From: an uncultured archaeon
Lineage (GTDB): Archaea > Thermoplasmatota > Penumbrarchaeia > JASLWR01
Reading direction: 5' to 3'
DNA: 51,789 bases
NCBI GenBank assembly: GCA_964430885.1
Contig: CAYSHM010000023.1
Span: 1-51,789 of the forward strand
This document shows, one piece after another, positions 1 to 43,090 of the stretch. The notes under the pieces were generated by a model. The model did no database searches and was not told the origin of the DNA. It saw only the letters and a program-made list of their open reading frames with translations. The stretch's first letter is position 1. Every line of letters starts with the position of its first letter. A program made the position numbers and the translations under genes.

Positions 1-127
1 CCGCTTCCTCTGCACCTTCTTCGGCAGCCTCTTCCACCGCTTCCTCTGCACCTTCTTCGGCAGCCTCTTCCACCGCTTCCTCTGCACCTTCTTCGGCAGC
101 CTCTTCCACCGCTTCCTCTGCACCTTC
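1..127. repeat. 36-bp perfect tandem repeat (3.5 copies visible, continues to edge)
   Basis: Unit CCGCTTCCTCTGCACCTTCTTCGGCAGCCTCTTCCA at 1, 37 and 73, partial at 109. Encodes EGAEEAVEEAAE on the minus strand. Confidence 0.95.
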
Positions 128-1708
128 GGCAGTGTCCGGGCTGAAATCCTCGGGCATATAATCCTCGCACGCATAGCAGTACCATCTCTGGTAATCCTCG
201 ATATAGTCTACATCACCTTGGCAATTGGGACATATCGGAGCAGCAGGTTTCACCTCTTCTTGGACCACTTCTTCTTCTTCGGTCTGTTCTTCTTCATGTT
301 TTTCCTCAGCGGCCTCTTGAGCAAAGTCTTCGGGCATATATTCCTCACATGCGTAGCAGAACCATCTCTGGTAATCCTCGATATAATCCGCATCACCGCC
401 GCACTTGGCGCATTTTGCTTCAGGTTTTTTCTCTTCTTCGGCGGGCTTTTCGTCATCTGTTTCTTCAGGTTCCTCCACCTTTTTCTTTACCCTTCTCTTC
501 ACGATTCTCTTCTTGATAGGTTTACAGATCACTCTTTTACCGGAAGGCAAGATGGCTATCCTTTCACCCTCTTTTGGAACTAGTTCTTCTTCAACTGGCT
601 CCTCTTCAATTGGTTCTTCGGCGGCTTCTTCTACCTGTTCGGCTTGTTCTTCCTTCGGCTGTTCTTCAAGTGTTTCTTCTTCAGCCGCATCCTTTGTTTT
701 CTCTTCCTCTGAAACCGGTTCGGCCCGGAAGTCCTCGGGCATGTATTCCTCACAAGTATAGCAGTACCATCTCTGGTAATCCTCGACATAATCTACATCA
801 CCGTCGCATTTGACACAGCTTGGTTTTGCCCCCACTGGCGTTTCCTCTTCCTCGCCTGCCGCTTCTTCTATCAGTTCTTCTTCCTCGATTTCCACTTCTT
901 CGGTGGGCTGCTCCTCTTCCTCTGGACTTTCCCCCTCTTCAATAGGAGCTTCAGCAGTTCCAGGAGTAAAATCTTCCGGTAAATAATCTTCGCACGCGTA
1001 GCAGTACCATCTCGAATATTCTTCAATATAATTAACTTCCCCAGAGCATTTTGGACATACATTTGTGGGCGTTTCCTCCTCGGGTTCTTCTTCCACAGCT
1101 TCTTCAGTTATTTCTTCAGCTGCCTCTTCCTTATCCCCGTGATCATGAGGCTGAAAATCCTCCGGCATATATTCTTCACACTTATCGCAGTACCATCTCT
1201 GGTATTCCTCTATGTATCGAATGGAATCCTTGCATGAAATACAGGTGGGTCCTTCCTCCTGGGCTTCGGGTTGGAATTCTTCCGGCATATAATCCTGGCA
1301 TTGGTCGCAGTACCATCTTTGATATTCCTCTATGTACCTGATTGGACCACTGCATTTATCGCATTTAGGCCAGGCGCCTTCCTCCTTCACTTCTTCTTCC
1401 CCCTGTCCCTTTTCCTCAGAAGGAGTTTCTTCAGGGATTTCCTCAGGTGCTTCAGCAGCTTCATCCTCAGAAGGCAATTCCTCAGGTGCTTCTTCCTGAG
1501 TCGCCTCTTCTTCGGCCACTTCCTCTGCAGCTTCTTCAGGTGCTTCTACCTTCTCTTCGGTTTCAGCAGCTTGATCTTGGGATTCTACCTTGGTTTCGTC
1601 ATCGTCACCCAGAATATCATCTGCTAGCATATCAAGAAGATCTTCTATCTCTTCAGTACCTTCATCTGTATTATTTTGTACATTATTTCCGGAGGTTTCT
1701 TCATCCAT
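1..1708 (-). CDS. Hyper-acidic protein with six tandem Cys4 Zn-ribbon repeats (3' partial, >=569 aa; absent from ORF track)
   Basis: Manual minus-strand translation from ATG 1708 (GGAGAGGT SD-like motif upstream) gives MDEETSGNNVQNNTDEGTEEIEDLLDMLADDILGD... with no stop seen before the window edge. Six repeats of CxxCxxxxxY[IV]E[ED]YxRW[YF]CxxCxxY[ML]PE[ED]F lie in Glu/Ala/Pro-rich linkers. No signal peptide or TM segment in the visible part. Confidence 0.9.
   Translation of the reverse strand, partial: MDEETSGNNVQNNTDEGTEEIEDLLDMLADDILGDDDETKVESQDQAAETEEKVEAPEEAAEEVAEEEATQEEAPEELPSEDEAAEAPEEIPEETPSEEKGQGEEEVKEEGAWPKCDKCSGPIRYIEEYQRWYCDQCQDYMPEEFQPEAQEEGPTCISCKDSIRYIEEYQRWYCDKCEEYMPEDFQPHDHGDKEEAAEEITEEAVEEEPEEETPTNVCPKCSGEVNYIEEYSRWYCYACEDYLPEDFTPGTAEAPIEEGESPEEEEQPTEEVEIEEEELIEEAAGEEEETPVGAKPSCVKCDGDVDYVEDYQRWYCYTCEEYMPEDFRAEPVSEEEKTKDAAEEETLEEQPKEEQAEQVEEAAEEPIEEEPVEEELVPKEGERIAILPSGKRVICKPIKKRIVKRRVKKKVEEPEETDDEKPAEEEKKPEAKCAKCGGDADYIEDYQRWFCYACEEYMPEDFAQEAAEEKHEEEQTEEEEVVQEEVKPAAPICPNCQGDVDYIEDYQRWYCYACEDYMPEDFSPDTAEGAEEAVEEAAEEGAEEAVEEAAEEGAEEAVEEAAEEGAEEA
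137..1363 (-). repeat. Six dispersed coding repeats (Zn-ribbon units)
   Basis: The DNA core GCAG(T/A)ACCATCT recurs near 176, 356, 761, 1001, 1187 and 1307, all in the same minus-strand frame (RW[YF]C). Confidence 0.9.
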
Positions 1709-1749: not shown

Positions 1750-1760
1750 TTTTATAAAAG
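1750..1760 (-). promoter_or_regulatory. Putative archaeal TATA box for the Zn-ribbon repeat gene
   Basis: CTTTTATAAAA on the minus strand ~45 nt upstream of ATG 1708. Confidence 0.45.
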
Positions 1761-1855: not shown

Positions 1856-4800
1856 TCACTGCAGCATGCTTTGAGTTCTGCAGCTCGGACATTCAATGGT
1901 TACGGGTCTTTCATCCGCCAAAACCTGCATTGCCGATTCGCAATTATAACAGATGACAGTTTCTCCCTGCGGTGTTTCAACTTCTTTCTTCATGGGAGGT
2001 TTCGGAGGTTTTTTCAGTTTTTTCTCCATTTTTCCCGCTTCGGGAGGTTCATAATCGCCAGGTTTCTTAAAGGTCAGGCCATCATCATCCCCCAGATCAA
2101 GCTTGGCATGTTCAGATACCTGAATGATCTCTTCTTCCCCTGTAGGACCTATCATATCATCCAAGGCCCCGTCCAGCAGATCGTCGATGTCGTCTTCATC
2201 CTCATCTGAGCCCTTTTCACCATCTACGGGGAATTCCTCTTCAAAAGCTTCTCCCTTGGGTTTGGCCTTTCCTTTTCCAGGCGGCGGAGGGGGTGCTTTC
2301 TTCTTTGGTTTGGGCAAGGGTTTTTCTTTTTCACCTTGGTCGACAATTCCATCCTTTTCATCCTCATCATCTTCTTTTGATTCTTCTCTCTCATCTTTTT
2401 CTTCTTTCTTTTGGGAGAGGTCAGATGTTGTTACTAGGGGTTCATCTTCTGATTTATCCTCATCAATATCGCCTTCTTCATCTTCGGTTTCCTTTCCATC
2501 CATATCAATATGCTGCGGCTGGACATCCTCCTTTTTCCTCTTCCGTATCACGATGATTATTATGAGTATTATGAAGAGGACTATTATTAATGCTATTATC
2601 AGCCAAAGAGCTGGAATCGCCCTATCTTGGTCATCATCCGATGATTTGGAGTCGGAAATGACATCAATCGTCCAGTTAAATGAATCATATGTATCTCCAT
2701 CGGGACTCTGAAGCTCAACTCTGAGAATTATCTGTTTTCCAACATATCCCTTCACCATCTTTTTGGAAAACTTATCACCTTTACTTTTCTTATCTTCAAT
2801 GTTGTTCAGGTACCATTTAATTTCGTACTCGTCATCCAAGGGATTGTCAACGTCGATCTCAACTATGAGCATTTTCTCAGCTATAACGGTAACATTGTCC
2901 GCATGGTCATCATCAAAATCCAAAATGGGGAATATATTCTTTATGGGTCTGAATGGTCCAGAACACTGGATTTCTTCAAGATGATTTCCCTCGTAATCGT
3001 ATGCAATAACGGCGATCCAGTAGGAATCACCACCTTTCAATTTTCTGCTCTGGTAATGGTCAATACGAAGGCTTGTATCGTCAATGAGGAATAGCTCCGT
3101 GCTTCCAGTCTCCTCCTTCACCACATGTGCTACATGGTTAGGTAGAAGTAAACTCACATTGTTGTCGAACACGAATACTTTATAATAAGCAAAGTCAGAA
3201 TCAGTTGCAGGTTCCCATTGGACATCCAGGGCGGAACCGTCGTCATTCGGAACATCTGCAGCTCCTATTCCAATCACCCTGCCGGGGGGCAGATTGTCAA
3301 AGCATTTCACTGGACCAAAGGGCACTACGGAAAGGTCTTGGTTCCCCGTAAGATCTTTGGCGGAAACCGCGAAGTAATAATTTCTATTATTGGAGAGGGC
3401 GCTTCCATCAATGGAATCGATCTGTAGTGTTACACTGTCATCGTCATCATTGAGATCCTCTTTATCCAAATATATTATCGGGTCCTCACCCGCAATAGTA
3501 TAGAATTCAGTTTCTTTGATATATATTTCATATGCAACCACATCTTCTTCATCACTCAGTTCGAAGGTTAATGTGAACTCTCCGCCACTATCGCCAGGAG
3601 TGTCAATGACCTTGCTGATCTCAATAGGTTCAGGAGGATAATTCTCTTTACAGATGACGGGTCCGGCCAGATTGATGCCGAACTCTACATTTTTATCCTC
3701 GTTCCATCTTTCATCAACTACTGTAACAGCGATATAATATTCCTTGTCCAGGTTGACCAAGGGCTTTCCTCCGCTAGTGGTAAGAAGAACCTGCTGAGTG
3801 GAGTGCAGATATAGGCTTATTTCGGGGGTCAGACCTTCCACACTGACAAAGGAATAATTGGCGATATATATATTATAGTGATGGAAATCATAGCTGTCAA
3901 ATGATGTCCACATTACACTTATGGCTCTTCCGCCAATATCTTTATAGGTTTCATTTGCTACAGCGTCAGCCACATAAAGCCCTGTCACTGGGCCAGGGGC
4001 AATGTTTTCATAGTTGATGACCGAGGGTGAGGAAGCGATCCGTTCATTGAAATTGCCGGAAGTATCAACTGCAACAACTGCAGCGTAATACTCCTCTCCT
4101 TCGACCAGATTTTCTCCGTCCATTTTCGTGAGGGTCGTATGATTGGTCAGTACATTACCAGCTTCCGGTCCATCGAGTTCACTTACATTAGTGATTCGCT
4201 CATCATCAATGAATACCTCATAATGCTCAAAATCCAAGGCAGTACACTCCTCCCAGTATACTTCTATACTTCCTCCCTGGTCATTGGGCGTATCATATAC
4301 CGTGACATTAGAAACCTGATCCGGAGCTATATTGTCCAGAGGAATCAGCTGTCCTACCTTGTTGTGACTATTTACAGTTCGGTTCTCCAACCTCTCGACA
4401 GAATTATCCACACTGGTTACGGCAAAAAAGTAACCCTGGTCATTGGATAGATTGGTAATATTGTATGAGGTACCAGTATAATTTGTTTCAATAGGATTCA
4501 GTGCATTCAGTGATACAATGTTATTGTTGCTTTGGTAGATATTATAGGTTCCGAAGTCGGGACTGGTGTTTGGCTCCCATTCTATGTGGAGTGCAAATCC
4601 TTCATCATTGGGGATGTCACCACCGGTAACACCGGTTACGCCGACGGGCGGATTGTTCAGGCTGTGTCCTGATCCGTTCACCACCTCAAGGTTTACATTC
4701 CCGTTGTAATCGGTGGCTGAAACTGCAAAGTAATAATCCACCTCATCCTGGAGAGGGTTGCCCTGGTAGCTTTCTATTAGATGGGTAGTGTTAGCAGGGT

Positions 4801-6211
4801 CAATTACCTCTGAGAACAGCGGTGTCATACCTGATACGTTATAGATAGGGTCGGTGCTTGCGTAAACATCATAGTGTTCAAAATCCCACATCTGACATTT
4901 GTTCCATTCCAGAACAAAGGCTCCGCCATTATCGTTTGGAACGTCAGTTACTCTAACGTTCTGGATTGGTGGTGGGGCGGTCAAATCGGGAACATAGTTC
5001 TCCAAACCGTATATTATGACATCATCAATGTAGAAACCGGTATTGTTCCCTCCTGCATCAGCCTCAAAAAAGAACCTGAATTGGATATTAGAAAAGTCGC
5101 GTACCGGGGATTGGAAATCCCACATGGTGAAACCCATGGGAACACCTATGCCCTTTGGTTCCGTGGGATCGACCTGCTGGTTTTGGTTTTCATCCAGATA
5201 CCAATTGGTGCTGATCCAGTTGGGATAGTTGCCCGCATATCCTTGAGGCGGGTCGTTAGCGTTGCCGAAAATATGGTCATAATTGGCGAATCCATCATCA
5301 CTCACCTGATCGGTATATATATGGTCATCACCCCCGCCAGTTCTTCCGCTGAGTTTGTATGCGTAGCTCAGAGGGTATGTGAAATCTTGGGGCCAGGAGG
5401 CACCTGCTTTTCTAAAATTGGACAGGTCGATTACCGGAGATCTGAGTTCCATTGCTGCATTATTGGGATATCGGTCGGGTGTCCCGTCATATCCATGGTA
5501 CCATGCATTTGGGACTGAGTGCGTACCAGCACCCACTGGTGTATCTGTGACATGCCACAAGTCGGTCTGTCCAAGGTCGCTGGGGACATGGGTCCACAAT
5601 CCTTCCCCGTTCTCGCAATCGTCTGCCCATTTATTCACCCAGCCAAGGAGGGTGAAGTGATCGTTTGACCGATTGGTATCATCAGTCACGTTTACGCTAG
5701 CAGTAATGTTGTATAGAAAAGCAAAAAGGAATTGATGAGAAAACTGGACATTGATCGTTGCACCACCAGCAATGTTGTTTATGGTCCTTGTAACATTCAT
5801 GACCTCAATGATTTCGAATTCCTCTGTGGTATTTGCGGTCCATATCTCACAGTAAACATCCACATTGGAAACGGGGTTTCCCAGGTTGTTGGTTACGGAA
5901 ACAGTGAATTCAGTGATCTTTCCCACTATACCAATGCTATAATTCCCTTCGTATCCCGGATCTGTGACCTCCCATCCTTCTATACCGCCATTATAATCAA
6001 TATTATCTACAGATACTTCGGTATCGGCTCGGGATGATATTGTAAATGAATCATGTCCTGCCTGCATGTTTTCTGGTTGGCTCAAGGGTTTGACCTTTGA
6101 ATCTGTTTTCAATTTACTGCTGAATTTGTCATCAACGATGGAATATAAGCTGGCCGAGAAAACAAGTAACATCAGTACAACAGTAATGGTTGTTTTTATT
6201 TTACAATTCAT
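1856..6211 (-). CDS. Large single-pass surface protein: CARDB-like + MAM/immune-inhibitor-A-like jelly roll + six FN3-like repeats + TM + acidic/Pro-rich tail with C-terminal Zn ribbon
   Basis: N-terminal signal peptide and a GFYIDDV strand. Six repeats of PP..V..V...DxPND.G......W...DF..Y..Y...YY.AV.A.D..GN. TM helix LWLIIALIIVLFIILIIIIVI followed by RKRKK. Ends CYNC-x17-CPSC. Confidence 0.85.
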   Translation of the reverse strand: MNCKIKTTITVVLMLLVFSASLYSIVDDKFSSKLKTDSKVKPLSQPENMQAGHDSFTISSRADTEVSVDNIDYNGGIEGWEVTDPGYEGNYSIGIVGKITEFTVSVTNNLGNPVSNVDVYCEIWTANTTEEFEIIEVMNVTRTINNIAGGATINVQFSHQFLFAFLYNITASVNVTDDTNRSNDHFTLLGWVNKWADDCENGEGLWTHVPSDLGQTDLWHVTDTPVGAGTHSVPNAWYHGYDGTPDRYPNNAAMELRSPVIDLSNFRKAGASWPQDFTYPLSYAYKLSGRTGGGDDHIYTDQVSDDGFANYDHIFGNANDPPQGYAGNYPNWISTNWYLDENQNQQVDPTEPKGIGVPMGFTMWDFQSPVRDFSNIQFRFFFEADAGGNNTGFYIDDVIIYGLENYVPDLTAPPPIQNVRVTDVPNDNGGAFVLEWNKCQMWDFEHYDVYASTDPIYNVSGMTPLFSEVIDPANTTHLIESYQGNPLQDEVDYYFAVSATDYNGNVNLEVVNGSGHSLNNPPVGVTGVTGGDIPNDEGFALHIEWEPNTSPDFGTYNIYQSNNNIVSLNALNPIETNYTGTSYNITNLSNDQGYFFAVTSVDNSVERLENRTVNSHNKVGQLIPLDNIAPDQVSNVTVYDTPNDQGGSIEVYWEECTALDFEHYEVFIDDERITNVSELDGPEAGNVLTNHTTLTKMDGENLVEGEEYYAAVVAVDTSGNFNERIASSPSVINYENIAPGPVTGLYVADAVANETYKDIGGRAISVMWTSFDSYDFHHYNIYIANYSFVSVEGLTPEISLYLHSTQQVLLTTSGGKPLVNLDKEYYIAVTVVDERWNEDKNVEFGINLAGPVICKENYPPEPIEISKVIDTPGDSGGEFTLTFELSDEEDVVAYEIYIKETEFYTIAGEDPIIYLDKEDLNDDDDSVTLQIDSIDGSALSNNRNYYFAVSAKDLTGNQDLSVVPFGPVKCFDNLPPGRVIGIGAADVPNDDGSALDVQWEPATDSDFAYYKVFVFDNNVSLLLPNHVAHVVKEETGSTELFLIDDTSLRIDHYQSRKLKGGDSYWIAVIAYDYEGNHLEEIQCSGPFRPIKNIFPILDFDDDHADNVTVIAEKMLIVEIDVDNPLDDEYEIKWYLNNIEDKKSKGDKFSKKMVKGYVGKQIILRVELQSPDGDTYDSFNWTIDVISDSKSSDDDQDRAIPALWLIIALIIVLFIILIIIIVIRKRKKEDVQPQHIDMDGKETEDEEGDIDEDKSEDEPLVTTSDLSQKKEEKDEREESKEDDEDEKDGIVDQGEKEKPLPKPKKKAPPPPPGKGKAKPKGEAFEEEFPVDGEKGSDEDEDDIDDLLDGALDDMIGPTGEEEIIQVSEHAKLDLGDDDGLTFKKPGDYEPPEAGKMEKKLKKPPKPPMKKEVETPQGETVICYNCESAMQVLADERPVTIECPSCRTQSMLQ

Positions 6212-12987: not shown

Positions 12988-14661
12988 TTATAGACCACCC
13001 ATTCCACCCATTCCGCCCATTCCGCCCATTCCGCCCATTCCACCCATACCTCCCATGCCCATGCCTCCAAGGTCATCATCCTTTTCTTTAGGCTTGTCTA
13101 CAATAGCGACCTCACTAGTTAGAAGCATTCCAGCAGCGGAGATGGCATTTTCAATTGCCATTCTGACCACTTTCTTCGGATCTATGACTCCATCATCCAC
13201 CAGATCGCAGTATTCGAGACTGGCGGCATTGAAACCGAAGTTCCCTGAATTCTCCCTGATCTTCTCCACAACTATATCGCCGTTCACACCTGCGTTGTTA
13301 GCTATCCATTTGGTAGGACTTGATAAAGAAGAAGCGATGATGTTCGCACCCTTTTTCTCATCCCCATCAAGTTGGAGCTCAATGACCCTGTCGTATGATC
13401 TTAAAAGAGCTATGCCTCCTCCGGCTACCACTCCCTCTTCTACTGCTGCACGGGTGGCCTGAAGGGCATCCTCCACACGGTCCTTCCTCTCCTTCAATTC
13501 TGTTTCAGTAGCTGCTCCGACCCTGATTACACCCACGCCGCCGGATAACTTGGCAAGTCTCTCACGGAGATTTTTTTTCTTATAATCGGAGGTGGCATCC
13601 TCAATTTGCGCCTTGATCTCATTAATCCTGCCCTCAATGGCTGACTTTTCTCCCAATCCGCCGATTATTGTGGTATTGTCCTTTGTTACCTCGATTCTCT
13701 TTGCCTGTCCCAGATTTTCCAGCCCTGTAGATTCCAGTTTTCTTCCGAAATCCTCACTAATCACATCTCCGCCTGTAAGAATAGCGATGTCCTCCATTAA
13801 AGCCTTTTTCTTGTCTCCGAATCCGGGAGCTTTCACAGCACACACATTTATTGCTCCTCGCATCTTGTTGAGGATCAAAGTTGCCATGGCGTCTCCTTCG
13901 AGATCATCTGCAATTATGAAGAATGGTTTTCCGCTCTGGACTACCTTTTCCAAAAGAGGCAGGAAATCCTGCATTCCACCAATTTTCTTATCATAGAGCA
14001 GAATGTATGGATCCTTTAACTCAGCAGTCATTCTCTCCTTGTCAGTTGCAAAGTATGGAGAGACAAATCCCTTGTCGAACTGCATACCTTCAACCACTTC
14101 AACCTCTGTTTCAACGGTCTTTCCCTCTTCCAGGGTCACCACTCCGTTCTCTCCCACCTTTTCCAGTGCATCTGCCAGCCTCAATCCAATCTCTTTGTCA
14201 TTGTTTGCAGCTATGGTAGCAACCTTGATCAGGTCGTCCTTTCCCTTAACCTCAACTGCAATTTCTCCGAGGTATTTCTTGATTTCTCCGAGAGCCTTTT
14301 CCATACCTCTGTATAAATAGATAGGATTTGCTCCCGCAGCAATGTTCTTCGCTCCTTCATGAATGATGTCCTGGGCCAATATGGTGGCGGTAGTAGTTCC
14401 ATCTCCAGCGTTCTTTCCGGATTTTTCAGCTACTTCTATCAGCATCTTAGCTCCGAGATTTTCCACATTGTCTTCAAGCTCGATCTCCTTGGCGACAGAT
14501 ACTCCATCCTTGGTTACCTTAGGGGATCCCCAGCTCTGTCCAATGATGACATTCCTGCCCCGGGGTCCTAAGGTTGTCTTGACTGCATTAGCAACCTTGT
14601 TCACGCCATTGATCAGCTTTCTTCTAGCTTCATCTTGAAAATATATGTTCTTTGCACCCAT
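12988..14661 (-). CDS. groEL: Group I chaperonin GroEL (Cpn60)
   Basis: [53 protein letters not shown] and C-terminal GGM repeats. Confidence 0.98.
12991..13069 (-). repeat. 9-bp coding repeat encoding the GroEL (GGM)n tail
   Basis: CC(A/G)CCCATT units, seven GGM triplets. Confidence 0.9.
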
Positions 14662-18933: not shown

Positions 18934-21900
18934 ATGAAAAATATTAAAAAAATATTTGCGGCAACAGTCGCATTGACAATGTTGTTAAGCATATTTCCAT
19001 TATTTGGAACTACTGCTGGAGCTCCGAACAGAGCTGGTGAGATTGTAATTTCTACAATTGAATTGAAAGATGATACCAATGTGAGTGGGGTTTATTCTCA
19101 AGGTATGCACATTATTGGGTTGAACTACACACTTTCGGTGGAATTGATTGATGTTAACATTACCTTATCCATCAACAATACTAATGAAACATATACTGAT
19201 ACCAACGCGTCAAATCCTGGCAATTTGGCAGCGGGAGATTATGTCGCATCCTTGGGTGTTGATTTCCAGGCAGTCGGTTGGTATGAGATAATTTACTTTG
19301 TTGAAGGTTGGGATGTGATTTCAGGAGGTATGGTTAACGAGAGCATTACCCGCTACATGGAATTTGAGTCCTTGTATTACTATCTGATTTATTACGAAGT
19401 GACAAATACCGTAATGCATCAGGGTAAGTATCCCCAGAGCGCCATGGCTCTCAATGTGGATGTTTACAATTTCGGTAATGATGATGCAGGATTGTTGAAC
19501 GTAAGTTTAGAGATAGAGGACAGCGGGTCCCAGGCGGAGGATCTCATGAATCCTTTCAGAGAAACCCAGGTTGAACCAGGTAACATGGCCCATGTGCTGC
19601 CATTCCCTTGGGTTCCTTCCGATGAAGATACCTTCGATCTAACAATCAAGGTTACGACCGACCCTGTCACAAGTCCGAATGCAAGTACAAATATAAGTGA
19701 ATTCCAATTATTGATTGAGAACACAACCTCTGCCCACATCAATATTTCAACTCCTCAGCCTGATACCTTGTATACCGGAGAGGATTTCACCCTGCGGGCA
19801 GCGGTGAGAAATTATGGTAATTCCAAATTATTTACCACTTTCATACTCTCCTATTATCCGGATGGTAATCCCGGAGCAGCCCAGGAGTTAGCTGATTTCT
19901 ATGTTGAAAACCTTCAGCCCTACGATAAGTATTTCTTGGAAGCTGACCTCCTCTACAACGAAGTATCCATCCTGGAGGCCGGATCATTTGTTCTGGAGAT
20001 TGCTGATGAAAATTCATCTTCCAAGAATACTACCATGATCACCGTAGATCCCATGCCGAATCAGGCTCCTGAGCTGATGAATGTTTCAGTCCTTCCGGCA
20101 TCCCCGGTGAATGTGGGCGACCCTGTAACATTCGATATAAACTACACCGATGTTGACGCCGATCCAGGCAGTGTTTCAGTTTTCATCGATGGGACCGAAT
20201 ACCCCATGATGCCTGTGATTGAAACTGTAAACTGGAATCAGCGGGTTCTATTTAGATATGAATGGACTGCTACCTGGGATTTAGCCCAGGATCCCGATGA
20301 GGATGGTCAGGAATTCGAATATAATTTCAGGGCAAACGACGGTCAGGGACACAATGCAACGCTGGATGATGGTGGACAGAACTTCACACTGGTTGTGAAT
20401 CCTCCGATGTACGGAGAGTTCAAAGGAATTGTCAAAGATACAGAAGACATTGGAGTAGCCGGTGCGGAGATAATTATTCTCGGAAATGATTATTTCAATG
20501 CGACCTGCGATGCCAACGGGAATTTCTCTGCGATGTTGGCTTTCGGTCAATATAATATTTGGCTGAATGACACGTGGTATGAGGAGAACGGTTACCTTGA
20601 CGGCTATCCCGAGGGCCAAATGGGTGTCAGGATAGTAACTATCACACTATCCAGGGATAATTATCCACTAACCCAGAATTTCGTCCTTCAAGAAGAGGAA
20701 ATCATTCCTTTGCCAGTTTTCAATGGCAGTGTTAATGATACCGATGGAAATCCTCTTGCCGATGTTGATGTGACCTTGGTGATATTCATTGATGAAATGA
20801 GCACTCTGAACACCACCGAACTGGTTGGAGGAGTTGTGAAGAATATTACCGTAAATGTGACCACTAGAACATGGTATAATCTGACGGCTACCACAGACAG
20901 CAATGGTAGTTATACGATTATCGGCGTACCCTTGAACACTTTTGATATAATGAAGCTTACCCAAACCGGAATGAAGAAGTACAGGGAAGATCTGGAGACC
21001 TTGCCTTCAAGTGCAGTAAGCAATGTCTGGTCACTAATGGTGGATAAACCGAATAAATTTGAATTCTCCGAGGCAACCTTCTCCAAGAAGGGTGCACAGG
21101 ACACAATGGTGAATGATACCACCTTCAATGAACTGGCTGTGAAGGTATACTTCGAGCTGGGTAAAACAAGTTTTGGCAATGTTACACTTGAGTTCGTCAA
21201 TGGTTCTGTTGTAGAGGACAAAGAATTCACAGTAACCGGGACCATCACACCTGCAAATGCAACCGTGAAGATCGACGACAATGAGGTGACTGTTACAAGC
21301 GGTAAGTTCAGCATTGTATTGAAAGGCGGAAACCATACCATAGTGGTATCCCTGGCAGGTTATGATGAGTATACTGATACATTTACCCTTGCCAAGAATG
21401 AGGATATGATCATCGAACTTCAGCTTTCTAGCGTCACGGTTACCATCGGTCCTTTCCTTGACGGGGATGGAAATGGTCTTCCGGGTGTTAAGGTTACCTA
21501 CAACGGTGTTGAAAGATTGACGGATGCCCAAGGAATTGCTACATTCGAAGAGGTCCTTGAAAGCGACACTGATGGTGGCAATATTCCTGCAGGAACTGAG
21601 ATCAAATTCGAATTCGACAGTGAGAAAAAGACAGCGAACTGGCCTCTCTCAGAAAAGGATTACAATTCATTTGATCAGGATACTGGCGATAAGAAAAGCG
21701 AGGAGAGCAATCTCCTGCTTATCATTGCTATTATCGTGATAGTTCTGATCATAATAATCCTGGTGGTACTCGCTTTGAAATCAAAGGGCGTACCAGAAGA
21801 TGAACTAATGGATGATGAGATCAGGGAGTATGAATGTCCCAGCTGCGGAGCTATTGTTACTTCCGATATGGCCGAGTGTCCGGAATGCGGCGAGATGTTT

Positions 21901-22158
21901 GAGGAGGAGGAGTTCAGATGTCCCGAGTGCGGTGAACTAGTTGAGATGGATGCGACCTTATGTGATAACTGCGGAGCAGAGTTCGAGTTCCCCGTACCTG
22001 ATGAAATGGATGACGAGGATATGGATGAGGCTCTGGATGAGGATCCGGATATAATAGACGATTTTGAAGTGGAACCGGATCTGGACGAAGAAGAACTGTT
22101 CAAGGATGAGGAAGAACTCCCTGATCCTGATGATCTTCCAGCTCCCGAAGACCTGTAG
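18934..22158 (+). CDS. Single-pass surface glycoprotein (CARDB/Ig-like, carboxypeptidase-regulatory-like, PEGA-like domains) with cytoplasmic double Zn ribbon
   Basis: Signal peptide, many N-x-S/T sequons, TM LLLIIAIIVIVLIIIILVVLAL. Tail CPSC..CPEC..CPEC..CDNC followed by an acidic end. Confidence 0.87.
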   Translation: MKNIKKIFAATVALTMLLSIFPLFGTTAGAPNRAGEIVISTIELKDDTNVSGVYSQGMHIIGLNYTLSVELIDVNITLSINNTNETYTDTNASNPGNLAAGDYVASLGVDFQAVGWYEIIYFVEGWDVISGGMVNESITRYMEFESLYYYLIYYEVTNTVMHQGKYPQSAMALNVDVYNFGNDDAGLLNVSLEIEDSGSQAEDLMNPFRETQVEPGNMAHVLPFPWVPSDEDTFDLTIKVTTDPVTSPNASTNISEFQLLIENTTSAHINISTPQPDTLYTGEDFTLRAAVRNYGNSKLFTTFILSYYPDGNPGAAQELADFYVENLQPYDKYFLEADLLYNEVSILEAGSFVLEIADENSSSKNTTMITVDPMPNQAPELMNVSVLPASPVNVGDPVTFDINYTDVDADPGSVSVFIDGTEYPMMPVIETVNWNQRVLFRYEWTATWDLAQDPDEDGQEFEYNFRANDGQGHNATLDDGGQNFTLVVNPPMYGEFKGIVKDTEDIGVAGAEIIILGNDYFNATCDANGNFSAMLAFGQYNIWLNDTWYEENGYLDGYPEGQMGVRIVTITLSRDNYPLTQNFVLQEEEIIPLPVFNGSVNDTDGNPLADVDVTLVIFIDEMSTLNTTELVGGVVKNITVNVTTRTWYNLTATTDSNGSYTIIGVPLNTFDIMKLTQTGMKKYREDLETLPSSAVSNVWSLMVDKPNKFEFSEATFSKKGAQDTMVNDTTFNELAVKVYFELGKTSFGNVTLEFVNGSVVEDKEFTVTGTITPANATVKIDDNEVTVTSGKFSIVLKGGNHTIVVSLAGYDEYTDTFTLAKNEDMIIELQLSSVTVTIGPFLDGDGNGLPGVKVTYNGVERLTDAQGIATFEEVLESDTDGGNIPAGTEIKFEFDSEKKTANWPLSEKDYNSFDQDTGDKKSEESNLLLIIAIIVIVLIIIILVVLALKSKGVPEDELMDDEIREYECPSCGAIVTSDMAECPECGEMFEEEEFRCPECGELVEMDATLCDNCGAEFEFPVPDEMDDEDMDEALDEDPDIIDDFEVEPDLDEEELFKDEEELPDPDDLPAPEDL

Positions 22159-24137: not shown

Positions 24138-27100
24138 CTAATCCCAAGAGAACAAATCATCATCCTTTCCTTTGCTGTCGTTATCCCAGTTCATATCACT
24201 ATTTTCATTATCCCAGGAATCATCGTTGTTGCCCAGGTCAAAGAGTTCATCAAGAAGATCTCCAGAGTATCTATCACTTGGTTCTGAATTTTTATTTTGG
24301 TCAAGGTCTTCAAAGATGTATTCCCCATCGTCATTGAAATCATTGTCCGCACTGTAATCCTCACCCCATTCCAGCTCCTCATTTTTATCGTTTTCATAGG
24401 GATCTTCATCCCAATCCTGTCTTCCTCGGTAATTCGAATCATTTGATGAATGCTGGTGATTATCCAATTCACCCCCGCTTTGGCGGGGATTATTGTTTCT
24501 TCGGGAAATATTAGGCATGTTTGAATATAGGTCAGAATAGTCTCTTTTATCCTCAACGGTTTCAGAAGGTCGTGTTTCAACTTTACTACTCGCTCTTTTC
24601 TTTCTATCTTTTTCCTTCTTTTTATTGCCCTTTTTTCTTACTAGAAGGGCAATAATGATTATGAATAAAATGATAGCTGAAATGACAATGATTATTATCC
24701 ACATGAGGTTATCCTTTACAAGTTCACCAGCATTGTCCAGAGCGCTGTCCTTTTCCTTTATATTTATATCAGTTCCATAATTTGCGCTTGTGCCTTCGTC
24801 AAGCAGGGATCTAAGCTGAATGTCCAGGTCATACTTCCCACTGGGTATATTTTCAGGAATAGTTATGTTGATCTTCAGATCATATACCCTGTCAGCTTCT
24901 ACCTGGAAGGAATTGAATTCAACTTTGGCCCATTTGGCAGCTTCACCGCTTATCAGTATTTCATAATTATCGATCCCGTTTCCAGTGTTCTTGATCTCCA
25001 GGTTCCAATCGGAATTATAGGCATTTCCTTGAGTAATATTAAGATTTTCAGGAAAATCCGGAAGGATTTTCAATCCGTAGAGTTGCTCTACATTTATCTC
25101 GATTGTCAGCTTATCCGATACCACTGGATCGCCGGGTGGGTCCTGGGCCGATACGGCTATCAGCTCAATAAGGTGTTTACCGGCCAAGGCGTTTTCGTCT
25201 ACCTGAATGGACAGTTTTCCTTCACAGCTTGAGAAACATTCCAATGGATAGGTGGAATTGACTAACTGTCCGCTGATCCATGAAACCGTATTGAATGATA
25301 CGTACAAAGTATCTCCAGAATTACCGAGATTGGATAGGTCGAATTGAATATCCTTGCTTTCACCAGTCTTCATATTAAATGCTGATTCCGCGCAGGTTAT
25401 TTCACAGCTGTACAAGGGTTTGATCACTACTTTTATTCTCTGAATGCTGCATATGCTTGAATTCTTACTGGAAGAAGCCTTGAAGTCGAAATAATATGTG
25501 CCTGCCTCTACATGTTCACCGGGTGTGACCCTGATCTCACTGAAATGTGTCTCATAGGCGTCTATCGATACCAGAGTTGATGGGATGTCGATATCCCAAA
25601 GGCTCTCCCCGCCAATTTCTAGCTGGTGGGAAAAATTGGACAGCGATATATTAATCATGTCCCTGAAGTTACCCCGATTCCTGATTTCCATGGATGTGTT
25701 GGTGGCATTACCATTGACGGTTTCCAGATTGTTGGAACCGAATTGCAGTTCAACATCGGGAATTTCCGCAACACTAAGGTTAACAGTTTTGATCTTGGCA
25801 ATATCTTGTGAGATGGATTCAACTCTAATATTAAAGGAATATCCTCCGGCAGTTGCATATTCGGGCACTTCCACCCTCACTGTTGCATTATGATGAGAGA
25901 ACTCATCTATTCTTACATCAAGATCATCAAGTGTTATTGCCCAGTTCGAAGGATATGTGATGATCTCCAGGTTGAAATCATCTTTTCCATTCCCTGAATT
26001 GATTATTGGAATATCTATCCATACCTGCTGGTTGGGAATAACATCGTAAGCCATAGGGGGCTCGATCTCGAATCCGTAGGTTCGATTAATAATGACATTG
26101 AATGCATGGTGATCATAAGCTGTTCCATTTGACATGACGGATGTAGCAGTAAAAACCAGCTGTCGGTTTCCAGCAGTACTTTTCGAAACTGGTATAATAT
26201 TTGCAGTTATCCTATCTTCGGAAAAGGCTTCCATGGTGAAATTATCCCTTGATAGCTCTACTTCCCAACCCTGGGGGATGTCTTGAAGTTCAATGCCCAC
26301 TATGTCCTGACAATTGGCCTGATTCGAAATATTCAGCTTGAATGATACAGGTTCACCCGGATAGGTTGATATATCTTCTACTGGAGAGGACAGTTCCAAA
26401 CCAAATTCTTCGGTCACGCTACATGTCATGTTCACAAATGTCCCCCTACCACCACTCATCACTCCTATGGGGAGAATATGGTTTGAATGGGCCAGAAGCC
26501 CTTCTGGCAGAGTTACTTGTATTGTTATGTTCTTTTCCTCTCCCGAAGCGATAGGTGTGTTCTGAGCAGAGCTGCCAGAAAATGATTCAGGGAGCTTTGA
26601 GAAATCTATATCTATCCTTTCCGCGAATGGTCCGTTATTAACCACCTTGATCTCATAAGTGCATGTTTCTCCAGGTTTTGCTTCATCAATTTCTTTCAAA
26701 ACGGTGAAATCTGTAGGCATTCCTCCTATAGCTAAAGAAGGATCACCAAGAAGATTGTATTCCGCCAGAGTCTTATGGTCCATGACATCATTGTTCCCCA
26801 CATCGTTCATATAATATGTGCAGGCTCTAGCTAGCATACGGCCAGGAGTTCTATGCCCCTCCTGAAAGCTTTTGTATAGATGGACATCCATAAAACCTGA
26901 TCGATGCTTGTAATAGTCGGTCCCCCAATCCCCCCATCCAACTCGAGTGCAGGAGATGACTGCAATTCCTCCCCCTTCTTCGTTCAGAAGCAATTCTTCT
27001 GAAATCGCCTCACCAGGATTATCCGGCCAAAATGTGGGTTTAAGTTCATTGTCGAAGGATCCGCACAGGCATGCGTCGAAGGTGAAAACAGGTAATTTAT

Positions 27101-28697: not shown

Positions 28698-28850
28698 TTT
28701 TTCACCAGGTAGTTGAATGATAGGATTTTTCAAGTTTCTCAAGTTTATTGAACTCACATTGGGACGAAAATATCTTAGAAGGATTTTAGGTTTATGACTC
28801 TTACGGCCCGTATCCATAGCGAATCAGCTTATTTGAAGGTGATGATTAAA

Positions 28851-32834: not shown

Positions 32835-33011
32835 GATTGTCAACCTCTACTTGTTTTGGTCACTTCAATTCAATGCTAAATTTAATTTGCTGATTTTTGG
32901 AGAAAGTGTCCCGATCAATGCAATAATCAGATAGAATTAGTATGTAAAGATAAATCAAATAGAAATATCTTTTTGGTTTTTTAATAAAGAATCAGGTTAT
33001 AAAAAACCAGT

Positions 33012-35307: not shown

Positions 35308-35671
35308 CACTCTTATTATATATATGGTGGATCAAAATTGAATGGGAATGTTGATGATATTATTTATCTAAACCTAATAAGTCTATAAAAAATTAACCAT
35401 ATTTTTAAGGTCCTCCTTCTTTTTATGAAGTAGTCTGGCCAATATTATTCTACATTTAAGGACCAATTGAAAGAATCGATGTAAAATGCCAATGATAATT
35501 ATTGAAGAAGGTCATCTTCAATTGAGAAATATCAAATAACAATTATGAAGGGTTTTCTATGTATTTCCAACAATTAATTATAAGATTTCATTGACGAATA
35601 CTGTTAAATATAGTGAATCGTATTTAATAAAACGATTTGAACAAAGAATTTTTGAGTTAAAAGGTGAAAAT

Positions 35672-41600: not shown

Positions 41601-43090
41601 TACTCACAGCCAATCGTTCAGGATATCTTGACCGGACCTATGATGATCTAAAGGTTGAACTTGGAAGGGTAGCTGACAGGAGCTTCATTCTTGAGAAATT
41701 CATGGTCTATGATATGGTGGAGGTTAGAGGAACGGTCACAAATGAGGACGGAAGGGCCTTAGGCGGTGTGAATATTTATTTGGGTGAGGCAGGAGGCTCA
41801 TTATATTGGGAAGCCAAATCCAATGCCAGTGGCGGATTCAGATTTGATACTATATACGGTTCATACCAGGTAGTGTTCAGAAGAGACGGATTCCGCGATC
41901 TGACCATAGATTTTGATCCAATTAACCAAACAGAAATATTGGATGTGGTGATGTCGGACGATACCCTTCTCCGAATAATTGTAAAGGATGAGGACGGCAA
42001 TCTGCTTGAAAGGGCTGAAGTTTCCATACAGAATGGTCCCACGGTGGTAGAAACCGGGACCACGGATGCTATGGGATTCTTAGAGCTTGACGGTATCCTC
42101 ATCCCTGGTACTTATATTATTGTCTTCAAAGCCGATGGATACAAGGAGGCCAGGAGGACCGGTATTGAACTGAGTTCAGGAAATGTCACGGAAGTACAGA
42201 TCAATCTAAAAGCCGAAGCTGTTTCAGACGATGGCGATAGCAGTTCCGCGCTTTCGTTGATCGGCTGGATATTGTTCATTATTGTGCTGATAATTGTCGT
42301 CCTGCTGGTAATAATTGTTGCCAGGAGACCTGCGGTAGACGGTAAGGAAGAATCCATAGATGATAATGAATCTGCTGATGAAGCGGAACCGGAGTCCGAT
42401 CTCACAGAGGGTGAGGGAGGGGATGCTGAGCCGTCAGCAGGGGCGGGAACAGAAGAAGTAATTGGCGATGGAACCGGAGCTGAAACAGGTGCTCAGGAAT
42501 ATCAAGCCCCGCAATTGGGTTCTGCTCCTATTGCAGATGAAAAATTGGCTCTTGATGATGGAGCGCAAAGAGACCTTCCGGCCTTACCTTCAGCTCCAGT
42601 CTGTCCCTCCTGCGGTATGGAAGCAGATTTCAGAAAGGATACGGATTCATACTGGTGCAAGGATTGCAAGGAGGAACTTACCAAGGACGTCGGTATATTA
42701 TCCGTGGAGGAATCGGAATCTTTGGCAGATGAGAGTGCTGTAGACGGGGAAAGTACGGAAGCTACTAAAGAAATCCCGGCGGATTCGGCTGAATCATCCG
42801 TTTCTCCACAAGGAGAGGATAGTGAAGTGGAAATTGAGCTCCAATCCGAACTTCAGGATGATAGTGGGGATGAAGAACAGAGGACCCATCAGGATCAATC
42901 TGCTATAGATGATGCAGCCGAGGCTTCGGACGAAGAGGCCGGTGCAACAGAAGATACGTCAACCACTGAGAACCCTGAAGAAAATAGTGAAGATGGTACC
43001 GTAACCGAAGGGGAAGGCCAGGAAGAGAGCCAGGATATAAACGAAGACGATCTTGATGATATGCTGGATGGAATAATGGACGATATCTGA
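35672..43090 (+). CDS. Giant (~2470 aa) single-pass surface glycoprotein: MAM/InhA-like jelly rolls, CARDB-like, Big_5-like and carboxypeptidase-regulatory-like domains, TM, acidic tail with Zn ribbon
   Basis: ATG 35672 with AGGTGA SD and a signal peptide. Three jelly-roll modules (FWHWY..GWYIDDI; FWHDF..GWYIDDI; FDHWY..GWFMTNL). DVTPPAVLETVP...VFDLVGN. TM + ARR. Tail CPSC..YWCKDC. Confidence 0.88.
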   Translation: MYSILSTRLTKSKWMSLFFVLLLLAPMGWMNLFSFSTNAVNPPDANLEEATMISGLSSFGSDEPLLIWDNDGGDQPDGLNGCESFINDSLASNGYQNITISAQGENLTAFNLTNYTVVFIVLGMGPGTGNISAPEMAELTAFLDNGGRLYVEGGDIGFQAEDASGSGEYANLWPYLGAQYQSNGTNQEYVVGCAPVITQNLSFAYTGDNASMDEIGSANGGFEILNNSGTGFGIANNKSYRTVLFTFQFGGLVDWGNFTTKDELMRRLMHFFAYEKKVDISVGKENLPTASFTDFETESDEGWTHGIVQGNIDCWERGLPTSGPNSAHSGTNVWATDLSANYLDFTDCALYMPRVDLFPNSKLEFWHWYNIERGWDFGQIEVQSQPGGNWQMISSFTGQSNGWVKETISIPNQFSGNVQIRFRIITDFIITAPGWYIDDIGLISDNGMFDHDDGYFVSNEVEIEPNVTVKNEGNVPAAFDLRARVYNQNNGTEVYNQSVLVNLTPRETMDVGFPQKWNTSTDVNATYIMEFMSLANEENGTDANNVTSFWIYVGIFTDLASQDVMFNVSDPFLPGINLTPKGKFLNLGNANISAFTASLKITDTNSTVIYWQNVSGNYLNLSWGNSTIIEFPVWQVPNGEDDYLVNLSHDFVDKDSGNDIYRTWVKGEEYYDAMVEEVLFNVSLPLNSSDVVNITVPIVNNGNIDALNFAVTCVVLNQTGSEIYNATNASVSVGLPNGNITRVAFDNIQLPSEEGDITVIIIITWPNDENQSNNLFMDDFPIDDHHDVGFPDPLDVQIVGEKQYDYFPLGPREIRTNIANFGNVNQTPTVRFDYAIEGPPRYLFFDDVEGSVANDTWTKVNFAGGQSQFHVVEPNSPHSDFHSPDHSWWLGQEATGDYADNNDAELICTRMDLRGETEATLNFWHDFKIAQDDILGIAYSLTSLDDPPNGMWQWYANWQGGNSGGWTQATYDLTPFAGQEFLLGFVALTQDNAGVPTVDDGWYIDDINITGPNPIVIDSHFVQAPELAPGQNATVTDVYDFQQNNTYFILPTTVLQGDENVANNDGYNTSMFMDFYDLSPTSIEVQGARTTFEKLDLSENDGGLIPGGRWSFEWGLPTNPTGPLSTGFNDNCWAVNLDSDYREHQDITLTYMLDLKNYTGAQLTFDHWYLTEEGNDGLWLEIKNGTNDDYLNLTPLGGYPSFTKVPWDGTRIPAYSGKSGFDPFFPEWRQPIFNISEYVGYVVEIRFHFCSDNVPNDPGWFMTNLSVIDPYTNAWYRMNSGEDCTVNFDFTNLGNIPSIQASAHLNVRGITDPGYSYQDTITISGIDPLALESDVFTTPWTPPAVEGLYWMNITLDIPNDLKPENSEIGIIVEVEDFHALAAKDILLPIENQAYALGDTIGIGALVRNWGTHPEQDVDVEIEIVDIDNASWAPVVLTDTLDDIPLKEDALMEFDWTIPDRLGARYMITLTVTHPLDENATDNVYSHIFYGLHKRSANGLFGFIVDNSSDSPYYSQALSGVDVLLVSRNTGDLMNTTQTDELGYYYFDLWDQVPGREYWVYYQKDWYYRSTYLLSLMPRTVYRMDMEMESSNLLPIARLMINGGESMTHYFIDNMELEFDFSSTLDNDDPGQMLTYRLESDISGLLFQGENDSFVTSLVSGSHNITLTVSDEMGGFASTSTTVISMNTSWKSYNIGVLTVELLCAGPGAIIIENQEVMPHLPAGYVDIHEDFHFNLKIQGDFFIEGMIITMTYTDDILHHNAYETDLGIFVYYHRPQTRSLAGWSELEVIERDFENNTLSVLNDNRTWQMDIDISMMAPEDVTPPAVLETVPVDKEKNASIYTDIYIVFSEPIQFNLLKKSDMTVKVDVVETKDYSLRYNDTERTLYIVMDSHPLDPNEKYSVKIDRVFDLVGNALEEITFSFRTKEPAVLKEKVHGYVRDKNLNPLSGASLLVDGDMVAVTDDWGYFSFYIQAGTYILTANRSGYLDRTYDDLKVELGRVADRSFILEKFMVYDMVEVRGTVTNEDGRALGGVNIYLGEAGGSLYWEAKSNASGGFRFDTIYGSYQVVFRRDGFRDLTIDFDPINQTEILDVVMSDDTLLRIIVKDEDGNLLERAEVSIQNGPTVVETGTTDAMGFLELDGILIPGTYIIVFKADGYKEARRTGIELSSGNVTEVQINLKAEAVSDDGDSSSALSLIGWILFIIVLIIVVLLVIIVARRPAVDGKEESIDDNESADEAEPESDLTEGEGGDAEPSAGAGTEEVIGDGTGAETGAQEYQAPQLGSAPIADEKLALDDGAQRDLPALPSAPVCPSCGMEADFRKDTDSYWCKDCKEELTKDVGILSVEESESLADESAVDGESTEATKEIPADSAESSVSPQGEDSEVEIELQSELQDDSGDEEQRTHQDQSAIDDAAEASDEEAGATEDTSTTENPEENSEDGTVTEGEGQEESQDINEDDLDDMLDGIMDDI

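Follow-up and report, generated by a model that had tools for sequence, protein, structure and literature searches.

Eukaryotic multi-module adaptors include paxillin, which joins LD motifs (consensus LDxLLxxL) to LIM domains, as well as multi-PDZ scaffolds and RanBP2-type zinc-finger arrays. In archaea, the closest functional analogue of the protein described here is CdpC of Haloferax volcanii (HVO_0399, DUF7093), a likeness drawn by analogy, with the sequences compared through the Pfam model DUF7093 only. As set out in the available part of a preprint, CdpC has two zinc ribbons, one containing an amphipathic helix and the other binding FtsZ1, separated by a disordered linker of 243 aa; it acts as the membrane anchor of FtsZ1, and distant multi-zinc-ribbon relatives across archaea are mentioned (10.64898/2026.07.16.738847). 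The subject of this report is P0001, a strongly acidic protein with at least six zinc ribbons. It is encoded at the beginning of a 51,789-nucleotide stretch of DNA (the window) from an uncultured archaeon of the phylum Thermoplasmatota; the window is the start of contig C23 in a genome of 44 contigs that is 91.6% complete.

Like CdpC, which the preprint presents as a cytoplasmic adaptor at the membrane, P0001 combines zinc ribbons with long disordered linker sequence and a predicted N-terminal amphipathic helix. The two differ in the number of ribbons, six or more as opposed to two, and in their helices: that of P0001 is acidic and lies outside any ribbon, whereas that of CdpC is described as Leu-rich, membrane-binding and located inside a C3H ribbon. 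The likeness to the eukaryotic adaptors is one of organization only, a short helical motif followed by a string of small zinc or tail-reading modules. A preliminary description of the locus had compared P0001 with paxillin on these terms, claiming no homology, and there is none: P0001 carries single Cys4 ribbons of ~27 aa instead of double-finger LIM domains (two contiguous fingers, ~55 aa), and LIM is not among its Pfam matches at E ≤ 10. Its segment EDLLDMLADDIL resembles an LD motif in pattern only, and it recurs at the ends of surface-protein tails in this lineage.

An acidic multi-ribbon gene cut at the contig edge

The P0001 frame opens with an ATG at 1708 and continues for 569 codons with zero stops up to the window edge, in agreement with the preliminary description of an open reading frame (ORF) running off the stretch. 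Here and below, ORFs are stop-to-stop frames and transmembrane (TM) segments are calls by crude hydropathy. The six tandem zinc-ribbon units quoted in that description are present letter for letter, and the spacing CxxC-x14-CxxC is found in 6/6. Scored with a profile of the 19 units of this genome, P0001's own six included, the whole ORF reaches E 1.9e-89 among 33,134 ORFs. Each unit reaches 52-58 bits against the same profile, which places the repeats far beyond chance. Units 2-6 are 56-71% identical to unit 1, with 13 invariant columns out of 34. The gene and its elements are:

2..1708, minus strand: acidic multi-zinc-ribbon protein P0001, 569 aa, an ORF with its 3' end beyond the contig edge; profile E 1.9e-89
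1274..1363, minus strand: zinc-ribbon unit 1 (aa 116-145), 22-aa core 1298-1363; 58.3 bits
1154..1243, minus strand: zinc-ribbon unit 2, core 1178-1243; 54.5 bits
968..1057, minus strand: zinc-ribbon unit 3, core 992-1057; 52.9 bits
728..817, minus strand: zinc-ribbon unit 4, core 752-817; 52.5 bits
323..412, minus strand: zinc-ribbon unit 5, core 347-412; 53.9 bits
143..232, minus strand: zinc-ribbon unit 6, core 167-232; 53.7 bits
1714..1721, minus strand: Shine-Dalgarno-like GGAGAGGT, 5 nt before the ATG; pattern match only
1751..1758, minus strand: TATA-box-like TTTATAAA, ~43 nt upstream of the ATG; pattern match only

The unit scores, together with the Shine-Dalgarno-like and TATA-like elements before the ATG, establish P0001 as a real archaeal gene cut at the contig edge; scans around its start for sigma-70 promoters and intrinsic terminators returned none. 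The product is cytoplasmic, strongly acidic and largely disordered. Its composition (Glu 28.8%, Asp 6.9%, pI 4.05) and its Glu-rich, low-complexity linkers bear out the acidic character noted earlier, and the units themselves carry a net charge of -2 to -5, where the mean of the family is +0.5. A word-based homolog search with the whole of P0001 yielded nothing at E ≤ 1e-3, probably because acidic low complexity swamped it, and the ESM Atlas held no usable match. An AlphaFold2 (AF2) model of the whole protein made without an alignment has a mean predicted local distance difference test score (pLDDT) of 43.6 and mis-models the units as helices; its only, weak hint is a helix at residues 19-32.

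The unit is a Cys4 zinc ribbon of 27-30 aa whose four Cys are invariant in the 19 units of the genome. AF2 on the 19-unit alignment gives a mean pLDDT of 92, with strands at 9-13 and 18-21 forming a hairpin between the two knuckles. In this model the unit folds autonomously as a zinc ribbon, and zinc binding is predicted. The top rows of a Foldseek search of the PDB are zinc ribbons from RPA, TFIIB, NudC and a chain of 49 residues in an archaeal 30S subunit (template-modelling scores 0.6-0.7, root-mean-square deviations 1.3-1.8). None of the 272 rows reaches E ≤ 1e-3, because a domain of 34 residues is too small, and a profile search of PDB sequences produced nothing significant across the whole unit.

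The preliminary description had allowed that the unit might match a characterised domain of unrelated function; at curated thresholds Pfam and NCBIfam contain none. P0001 has 11 weak Pfam matches at E ≤ 10, all of them far from the respective cut-offs; the highest-scoring is zf-C17orf113 (19.9 bits against a cut-off of 29.5). It falls below the gathering cut-offs of DZR (7.5 vs 27.3 bits) and DZR_2 (10.7 vs 27 bits), and nothing in NCBIfam scores above any cut-off. Scanned singly, the 19 genome units spread over 77 zinc-binding Pfam families, with a best E of 1.3e-4. The generic zinc ribbons (DZR, DZR_2, Zn_ribbon_6, Zn_ribbon_19 and Zn_Ribbon_1) likewise set two CxxC knuckles around a beta-hairpin, and some relatives of the unit pass the cut-offs of such models when units are summed. 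For instance, a 7-unit paralog on contig C27 passes DZR/DZR_2 only in this way, at 36.3 bits and with no single stretch doing so. Those models leave undescribed the family's own aromatic/Arg signature, its habit of tagging protein termini and its tandem arrays. The fold, then, is already known, while the subfamily, signature, terminal-tag habit and arrays are uncurated in Pfam and NCBIfam. A literature search found no description of this zinc-ribbon subfamily, with only the CdpC preprint coming near. The ribbons treated in the accessible part of PMC5906684 are of the Cren7 type and lie outside this family.

Two further features bear on the interior and the missing 3' end of the gene:

476..568, minus strand: basic patch GERIAILPSGKRVICKPIKKRIVKRRVKKKV (aa 381-411), located between units 4 and 5 and read from the translation; a short hairpin at 383-395 in the low-confidence AF2 model
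1..127, no strand assigned: perfect 36-nt tandem repeat, 3.5 copies, encoding (AEEAVEEAAEEG)n; repeat scan and contig overlay

The contig breaks off here because the window opens inside the perfect 36-nt repeat. The preliminary description had proposed recovering the 3' end, which was followed in public contigs by comparing positions 1-1708 with Logan contigs of four runs from one marine-metagenome study, two of which may be the source sample. Positions 176-1708 are reproduced without difference by 12.8-kb contigs in two runs, and pieces occur in two further runs. A bridging contig of 538 nt (543 nt in the second run) has depths of 14.8 and 16.3, where the main contig has 15.6 and 20.2, which points to a single-copy sequence. 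It ends with an exact copy of 84-200; leftward, that is, downstream in the gene, it has 19 differing letters and then three stretches ~85-90% like the unit regions 328-415, 728-811 and 1001-1077. Read in this way, the P0001 gene would go on beyond a collapsed repeat for three or more additional units, bringing their number to nine or higher. There may be further copies, since a 35-mer inside unit 6 is present at double depth.

The minus-strand end of contig C19, where the second half of a unit (...CYACEEYMPEDYNPREKKN) is followed by a stop, could be the true end of the gene; the join is plausible, with an overlap of only ~4 nt with the bridging contig. At this C19 end (L012, 5406-5948) the stop after the half unit is immediately preceded by a run of ten A, which is also present in a contig of run X2. 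With one extra A in the run, the frame would read on into a coiled-coil frame of ~170 aa; in the assembly as it stands, a separate coiled-coil ORF (145 aa, no Pfam match) begins 45 nt after the stop. An ordinary enzyme hidden at the unseen C-terminus, which the preliminary description had considered as a contrary outcome, is unlikely because complete relatives stop just after their last unit. In six multi-unit relatives, among them L028 with an ORF truncated at the 5' end, 1-7 residues follow the conserved Tyr of the final unit, and the eight single-unit proteins described below end within that range as well.

Ribbons at tail ends and in arrays

The 19-unit profile was searched against 1.84 billion sequences; 1262 cluster representatives match it at E ≤ 1e-3, of which 204 reach E ≤ 1e-10 and 52 reach E ≤ 1e-30. 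Family statistics refer to the best 150 of the 1262, which hold 455 units counted by regular expression, and partner domains in Pfam were scored on 116 of the 150. Proteins with two units are the most frequent (59), followed by those with three (32), four (22), five (17), six (11) and seven (5); one protein each has one, eight, nine and ten. The consensus over the 455 units is CPxCG-x2-L-x-[YF][IV]-xx-Y-x-R-[WY][YW]-C-xx-C-xx-Y-[AM]-P, in which the conserved non-cysteine positions are Y16 (413/455), R18 (341/455) and Y27 (447/455). The fourth Cys is Glu or Asp in 59/455 units, as in ...WYCYAESKY...; such units are either Cys3-carboxylate sites or zinc-free variants. The median linker length is 26 aa (n = 368), with a high content of Pro (16.6%), Glu (15.1%) and Ala (14.9%).

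Just over half of the 150 proteins (76) have no predicted TM segment. In 47 all units are N-terminal of a C-terminal TM hairpin, in 26 the units are C-terminal of all TMs and one is mixed; the last unit lies ≤ 10 aa from the C-terminus in 66/150. The ribbon thus occurs either singly, at the far cytoplasmic end of membrane or surface proteins, or as arrays of 2-10, joined by Pro/Glu/Ala-rich spacers, that are soluble or held by a C-terminal TM hairpin. Partner domains in the 116 relatives are SAP or SAP_new25 (9), protein kinase (4), TPR (3), and MMPL, VWA and PRC-barrel (1 each). In source databases the relatives are named 'zinc-ribbon domain-containing protein' or 'hypothetical protein', and P0008 (JGI) is named 'chemotaxis protein histidine kinase CheA'.

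The single-copy form is best seen with a narrower query made of the six window units, which finds 8 loci in a species-level genome collection. By the titles of their records these belong to Heimdallarchaeota (2), Thermoplasmata (2) and Bathyarchaeia/Bathyarchaeota (4). In 8/8 there is a single unit and the protein ends 1-2 residues past Y27; 6/8 are visibly membrane proteins by eye. Matches to the 19-unit profile are found in 96/301 genomes sampled across the phylum and in 54/214 high-quality ones, and the organism's own family has at least 22 profile matches per genome.

Within the genome itself, the unit model applied to the 33,134 ORFs finds nine proteins and one fragment. Three are arrays: P0001 and two proteins with seven units each, one on C27 that also has TPR and one on C8. 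The other six have a single unit; those on C1, C3 and C17 carry it on a membrane-protein tail, and the rest are on C3, C6 and C14. The C8 paralog (L031, 4956-6770, minus strand) has seven near-identical units (CPDCSGKIRFIEQYKRYYCDACKKY) after a ~130-aa helical N-terminal domain with no Pfam match. It contains an assembly gap, has 6-unit orthologs in the sister genus and an ortholog fragment, cut by a contig end, in a third genus of the family. The C6 protein (L009, 273-4017) combines an N-terminal unit, a TPR region and an acidic helix end, and lies directly downstream of ABCE1/RLI, a ribosome-recycling ATPase; this position may be a coincidence. The neighbourhoods of the multi-unit genes (C27, C8, C6 and the C19 end) have nothing in common except large surface proteins, which are ubiquitous in the genome.

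An acidic helix motif and the tails of giant surface proteins

The helix near the N-terminus of P0001 links it to other genes of the window:

1613..1654, minus strand: N-terminal acidic amphipathic helix EEIEDLLDMLADDI (aa 19-32); regular expression, helix in the low-confidence AF2 model
1856..6211, minus strand: upstream neighbour, a 1451-aa fn3 surface protein with one TM (~aa 1204)
42602..42667, plus strand: divergent unit-like CxxC-x14-CxxC in the tail of a 2499-aa giant protein; 19.9 bits, borderline
43055..43087, plus strand: DDMLDGIMDDI, an acidic helix motif at the very C-terminus of the same giant protein

An LD-like N-terminal helix had been proposed for P0001. A helix is indeed modelled at that place, at low confidence, and from its sequence it appears better described as an internal copy of a lineage-specific acidic tail-end motif, with the pattern [DN]LD[DE]M[LV]DG[LI][LM][DE]D[LI]. 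A regular expression for it matches six ORFs of the genome, five at a strict setting. In P0001 the motif is near the N-terminus and in the upstream neighbour it is in the tail; in the giant protein of the window, a 1910-aa C24 protein and the unit+TPR protein on C6 it stands at the very C-terminus. The sixth, non-strict match, on C14, looks like chance. With a 29-aa helix query, the motif was also found in the sister genus, ending two ORFs of 1394 and 1567 aa and one short open frame (L033, L034, L035). Sister-genus ends read ...NLDDMLDGLLEDL and ...DLDEMVDGLLDDL, each followed by a stop; their E-values are weak and the motif is plain to read. The acidic helix end is thus a candidate C-terminal recognition signal. 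A degenerate DNA pattern for the helix run over 41 genomes, this one and 40 relatives, found only one of this genome's own copies and was too strict to be informative. Mimicry of the FtsZ C-terminal peptide was considered and set aside, as FtsZ here ends in GIDFIR and NIPYIE, unlike the helix.

The tail of the upstream neighbour contains two basic poly-Pro patches, the acidic helix motif (2153-2185, minus strand) and an unrelated C-terminal CxxC-x17-CxxC. A complex prediction of P0001 units 1-4 with this cytoplasmic tail scored 0.00; it had no controls and counts neither way. The preliminary description had also likened the tail of the giant protein to the P0001 units. The spacing CxxC-x14-CxxC is there, at 42602-42667, and the kinship is borderline: the motif reaches E 7e-4 only when the tail is scored alone and has none of the family's conserved Tyr/Ile/Arg positions, so that by sequence it would be a divergent member at best. 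The tie between P0001 and the giant protein is stronger through the common acidic helix than through the zinc motif.

C-terminal ends were surveyed in 156 giant tailed ORFs (≥ 800 aa, last predicted TM 80-500 aa from the end) and in 981 other ORFs of ≥ 300 aa. The classes were set after viewing the data, and the counts, given here for giant tailed and then for other ORFs, are descriptive only:

CxxC end: 28/156; 32/981
Acidic-Trp end: 20/156; 15/981
Poly-Pro end: 19/156; 2/981
FEVQIEQ paralogs: 9/156; 0/981
Acidic-helix end: 7/156; 2/981
FKIDL end: 5/156; 0/981
Other ends: 68/156; 930/981

By this crude TM call, the recurrent tail-end classes are far commoner in giant surface proteins than in the 981 other ORFs. 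Examples of giant tailed ORFs are 1856-6211 and 35591-43090 in the window and C24:21954-27683. Many giants end in a second, unrelated type of C-terminal zinc ribbon, with the sequences ...P[AV]LVTCPHCG[VT][EQ]G[EQ]I... and ...ERPVTIECPSCRTQSMLQ; the last 31 aa of the upstream neighbour are of this type. Ten giant paralogs (~1500-2400 aa) on C2, C15, C26 and C37, five of them in tandem on C26, have an identical 25-aa C-terminus ending in FEVQIEQ.

The window as a whole is dense in large secreted or surface proteins, among them 24138-28817 (minus strand), 29037-32843 (minus strand) and 18934-22158 (plus strand). These comprise a C25 gingipain-like peptidase, beta-helix/NosD+PKD proteins and CarboxypepD_reg proteins, and one has ordinary Zn_ribbon_3/DZR ribbons in its tail. 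A Cpn60/TCP-1 family chaperonin at 12988-14661 (minus strand) was considered as a thermosome and matches GroEL instead, being 57-66% identical to source-named GroEL of bacterial metagenome-assembled genomes. It is likely a horizontally acquired GroEL in an otherwise archaeal genome, whose archaeal markers include eS31, PCNA and ABCE1. The genome has three tubulin-family genes. A context of Asgard-type cytoskeleton or ESCRT was rejected, there being no Actin or Snf7 Pfam match in the 91.6% complete genome.

Proposed docking and its alternatives

We tentatively propose that the ribbon docks to one common partner in the cytoplasm and that arrays bind several partners at once. This reading is put forward because the unit folds autonomously, occurs in multiple copies on disordered linkers, is placed at cytoplasmic termini and conserves Tyr and Arg, and because a helix motif is common to P0001 and surface-protein tails. 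Each ribbon would dock independently. Residues L10, Y12 and W19 are probably packed round the zinc, while an exposed Tyr/Arg surface for the partner, most likely a protein, is probably made up of I13, Y16, R18, Y20 and Y27, the last of these near-invariant. A single ribbon would mark a membrane-protein tail for this partner; P0001, like other arrays, would bind several copies of it and so cluster them, tether them or compete with tagged tails. The N-terminal helix of P0001 might plug into a reader of the acidic helix on giant surface-protein tails, including that of the upstream gene. From the preliminary proposal of a multivalent beads-on-a-string scaffold, the anatomy has held up (autonomous ribbons, low-complexity linkers, 1-10 units in relatives), and a scaffolding role may be suggested from it.

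Several observations weigh against docking as formulated here. No binding partner was identified, and the case is made from anatomy; the roles of core and surface residues are taken from strand alternation and not from measured coordinates. The units of P0001 are unusually acidic and may not bind the ligand of other units. The acidic helix motif is absent from all 150 best family members (0/150) and therefore cannot be the family's general ligand. A close ortholog of the whole of P0001 was not found in 40 relatives, in which its best matches are other multi-unit proteins, 41-43% identical over the units only. SAP domains in 9/116 relatives and a weak resemblance to eS31 point towards nucleic acid.

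These last observations belong to another explanation, in which the ribbons derive from, or converge with, the zinc ribbon of the ribosomal protein eS31 (S27a/S27ae, PF01599) and arrays bind nucleic acids that are repetitive or long. Tyr/Arg surfaces are typical of base stacking, and the SAP or SAP_new25 domains in 9/116 relatives would fit. eS31 has the same knuckle spacing as the unit, CPxCG, a hydrophobic position 10 and Glu and Asp-Arg before the second knuckle, the pattern CPxCG ... E..DR..C..C being common to the eS31 of 30 phylum genomes. An hhalign comparison of 465 distinct units with 30 eS31 sequences gave a probability of 92.4 and a score of 26.9, Ribosomal_S27 lies above its cut-off, summed over units, in 11/116 relatives, and eS31 chains are among the weak PDB matches (sequence E 0.06-0.4; fold rank 20, 4v5o_A9). 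However, permuting the columns between the knuckles equals the real score in 6/150 trials (mean 17.9, sd 3.7), and much of the eS31 signal is therefore Cys scaffold. When the 19 local units are aligned with the genome's own eS31 the hhalign probability is 58. Ribosomal_S27 at E ≤ 1e-3 finds only the true eS31 (C38) in the genome, is not among the 25 families listed for single units, and PF01599 (cut-off 22.3 bits) is not in the P0001 Pfam matches at E ≤ 10. Unlike the unit, eS31 is a single-copy ribosomal protein, with no repeat or tail tag, and is without Y12, Y16, W19-Y20 and Y27. P0001, with 36% Asp+Glu and acidic units, would be a poor binder of nucleic acid, and linker charge varies freely across the family. 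Nucleic-acid or ribosome binding is judged unlikely. A role without any specific partner, in which P0001 serves as an acidic entropic spacer or else buffers or stores zinc, and the ribbons are mere metal-binding folded knots, appears less likely still. It would agree with the presence of at least six to nine Cys4 sites along a single disordered and very acidic chain, with unit number and linker length free to vary across the family, and with the fact that no partner was found. Yet the conserved non-ligand residues Y16, R18 and Y27 over 455 units and the terminal placement would be superfluous for metal storage, and a Glu or Asp in place of the fourth Cys in 59/455 units would weaken a pure storage role.

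A tether to the cytoskeleton resembling CdpC is a specific case of docking: the ribbons would bind the globular domain of an FtsZ/tubulin-family protein, and the linkers would space it from membrane partners. In its favour are the parallel ribbon/linker/ribbon architecture of CdpC, as far as the preprint's available text presents it (10.64898/2026.07.16.738847), the three tubulin-family genes in a genome with no Snf7 or actin Pfam match, and one family member with a PRC-barrel, a fold linked to archaeal division proteins in the accessible part of PMC5906684. Against it, DUF7093 is neither in the P0001 Pfam matches at E ≤ 10 nor among the 25 families listed for single units. The N-terminal ribbon of CdpC is described as C3H, with ~27 residues between ligand pairs, in place of CxxC-x14-CxxC; and remote CdpC homologs, by the same partial account, have no evident disordered linker and are missing from Thermoproteota, whereas the unit is present in Bathyarchaeia-titled records (10.64898/2026.07.16.738847). 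A partner of this particular kind is improbable on balance. That the locus is an assembly artefact or a decaying gene, with repeats mis-assembled or the ORF unexpressed, is hardly credible. The contig does end in a perfect 36-nt tandem repeat, the unit-6 35-mer is at double depth and the C8 paralog has an assembly gap; but the six units are mutually distinct (56-71% identity) in one unbroken frame of 569 codons, 176-1708 is reproduced exactly by the 12.8-kb contigs of two runs (with the caveat above on the source sample), and the family is conserved across phyla.

The docking proposal could extend to a cytoplasmic 'tail code', a wider idea that we regard as speculative and rather unlikely. In such a code, used by this archaeon and its relatives, ~150 giant single-pass surface proteins would end in a few short C-terminal signals (zinc ribbon, acidic LD-like helix, poly-proline end, acidic-Trp end or FKIDL end), to be read and cross-linked by soluble multivalent adaptors such as the P0001-type multi-ribbon protein and ribbon+TPR proteins. 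If true, this arrangement would be a prokaryotic analogue of the adaptor and scaffold systems of eukaryotes and would connect the cell surface with machinery for division, the cytoskeleton or sorting; the ribbon would then be a new and widespread protein-docking domain, one shared with Heimdallarchaeia and Bathyarchaeia.

Zinc ribbons are common, but this subfamily, with 1262 cluster representatives and a presence in a third of the sampled phylum genomes, is abundant and has no curated model; such a model would name more than 1000 protein clusters (50% identity representatives). The placement of its ribbons is unusual and consistent, at cytoplasmic tail ends or in long arrays, as is the case for docking modules and tags in eukaryotic signalling and sorting. 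Very little is known about how archaea couple their surface proteins to the cell interior, and a defined partner of the ribbon would provide a first handle on this process.

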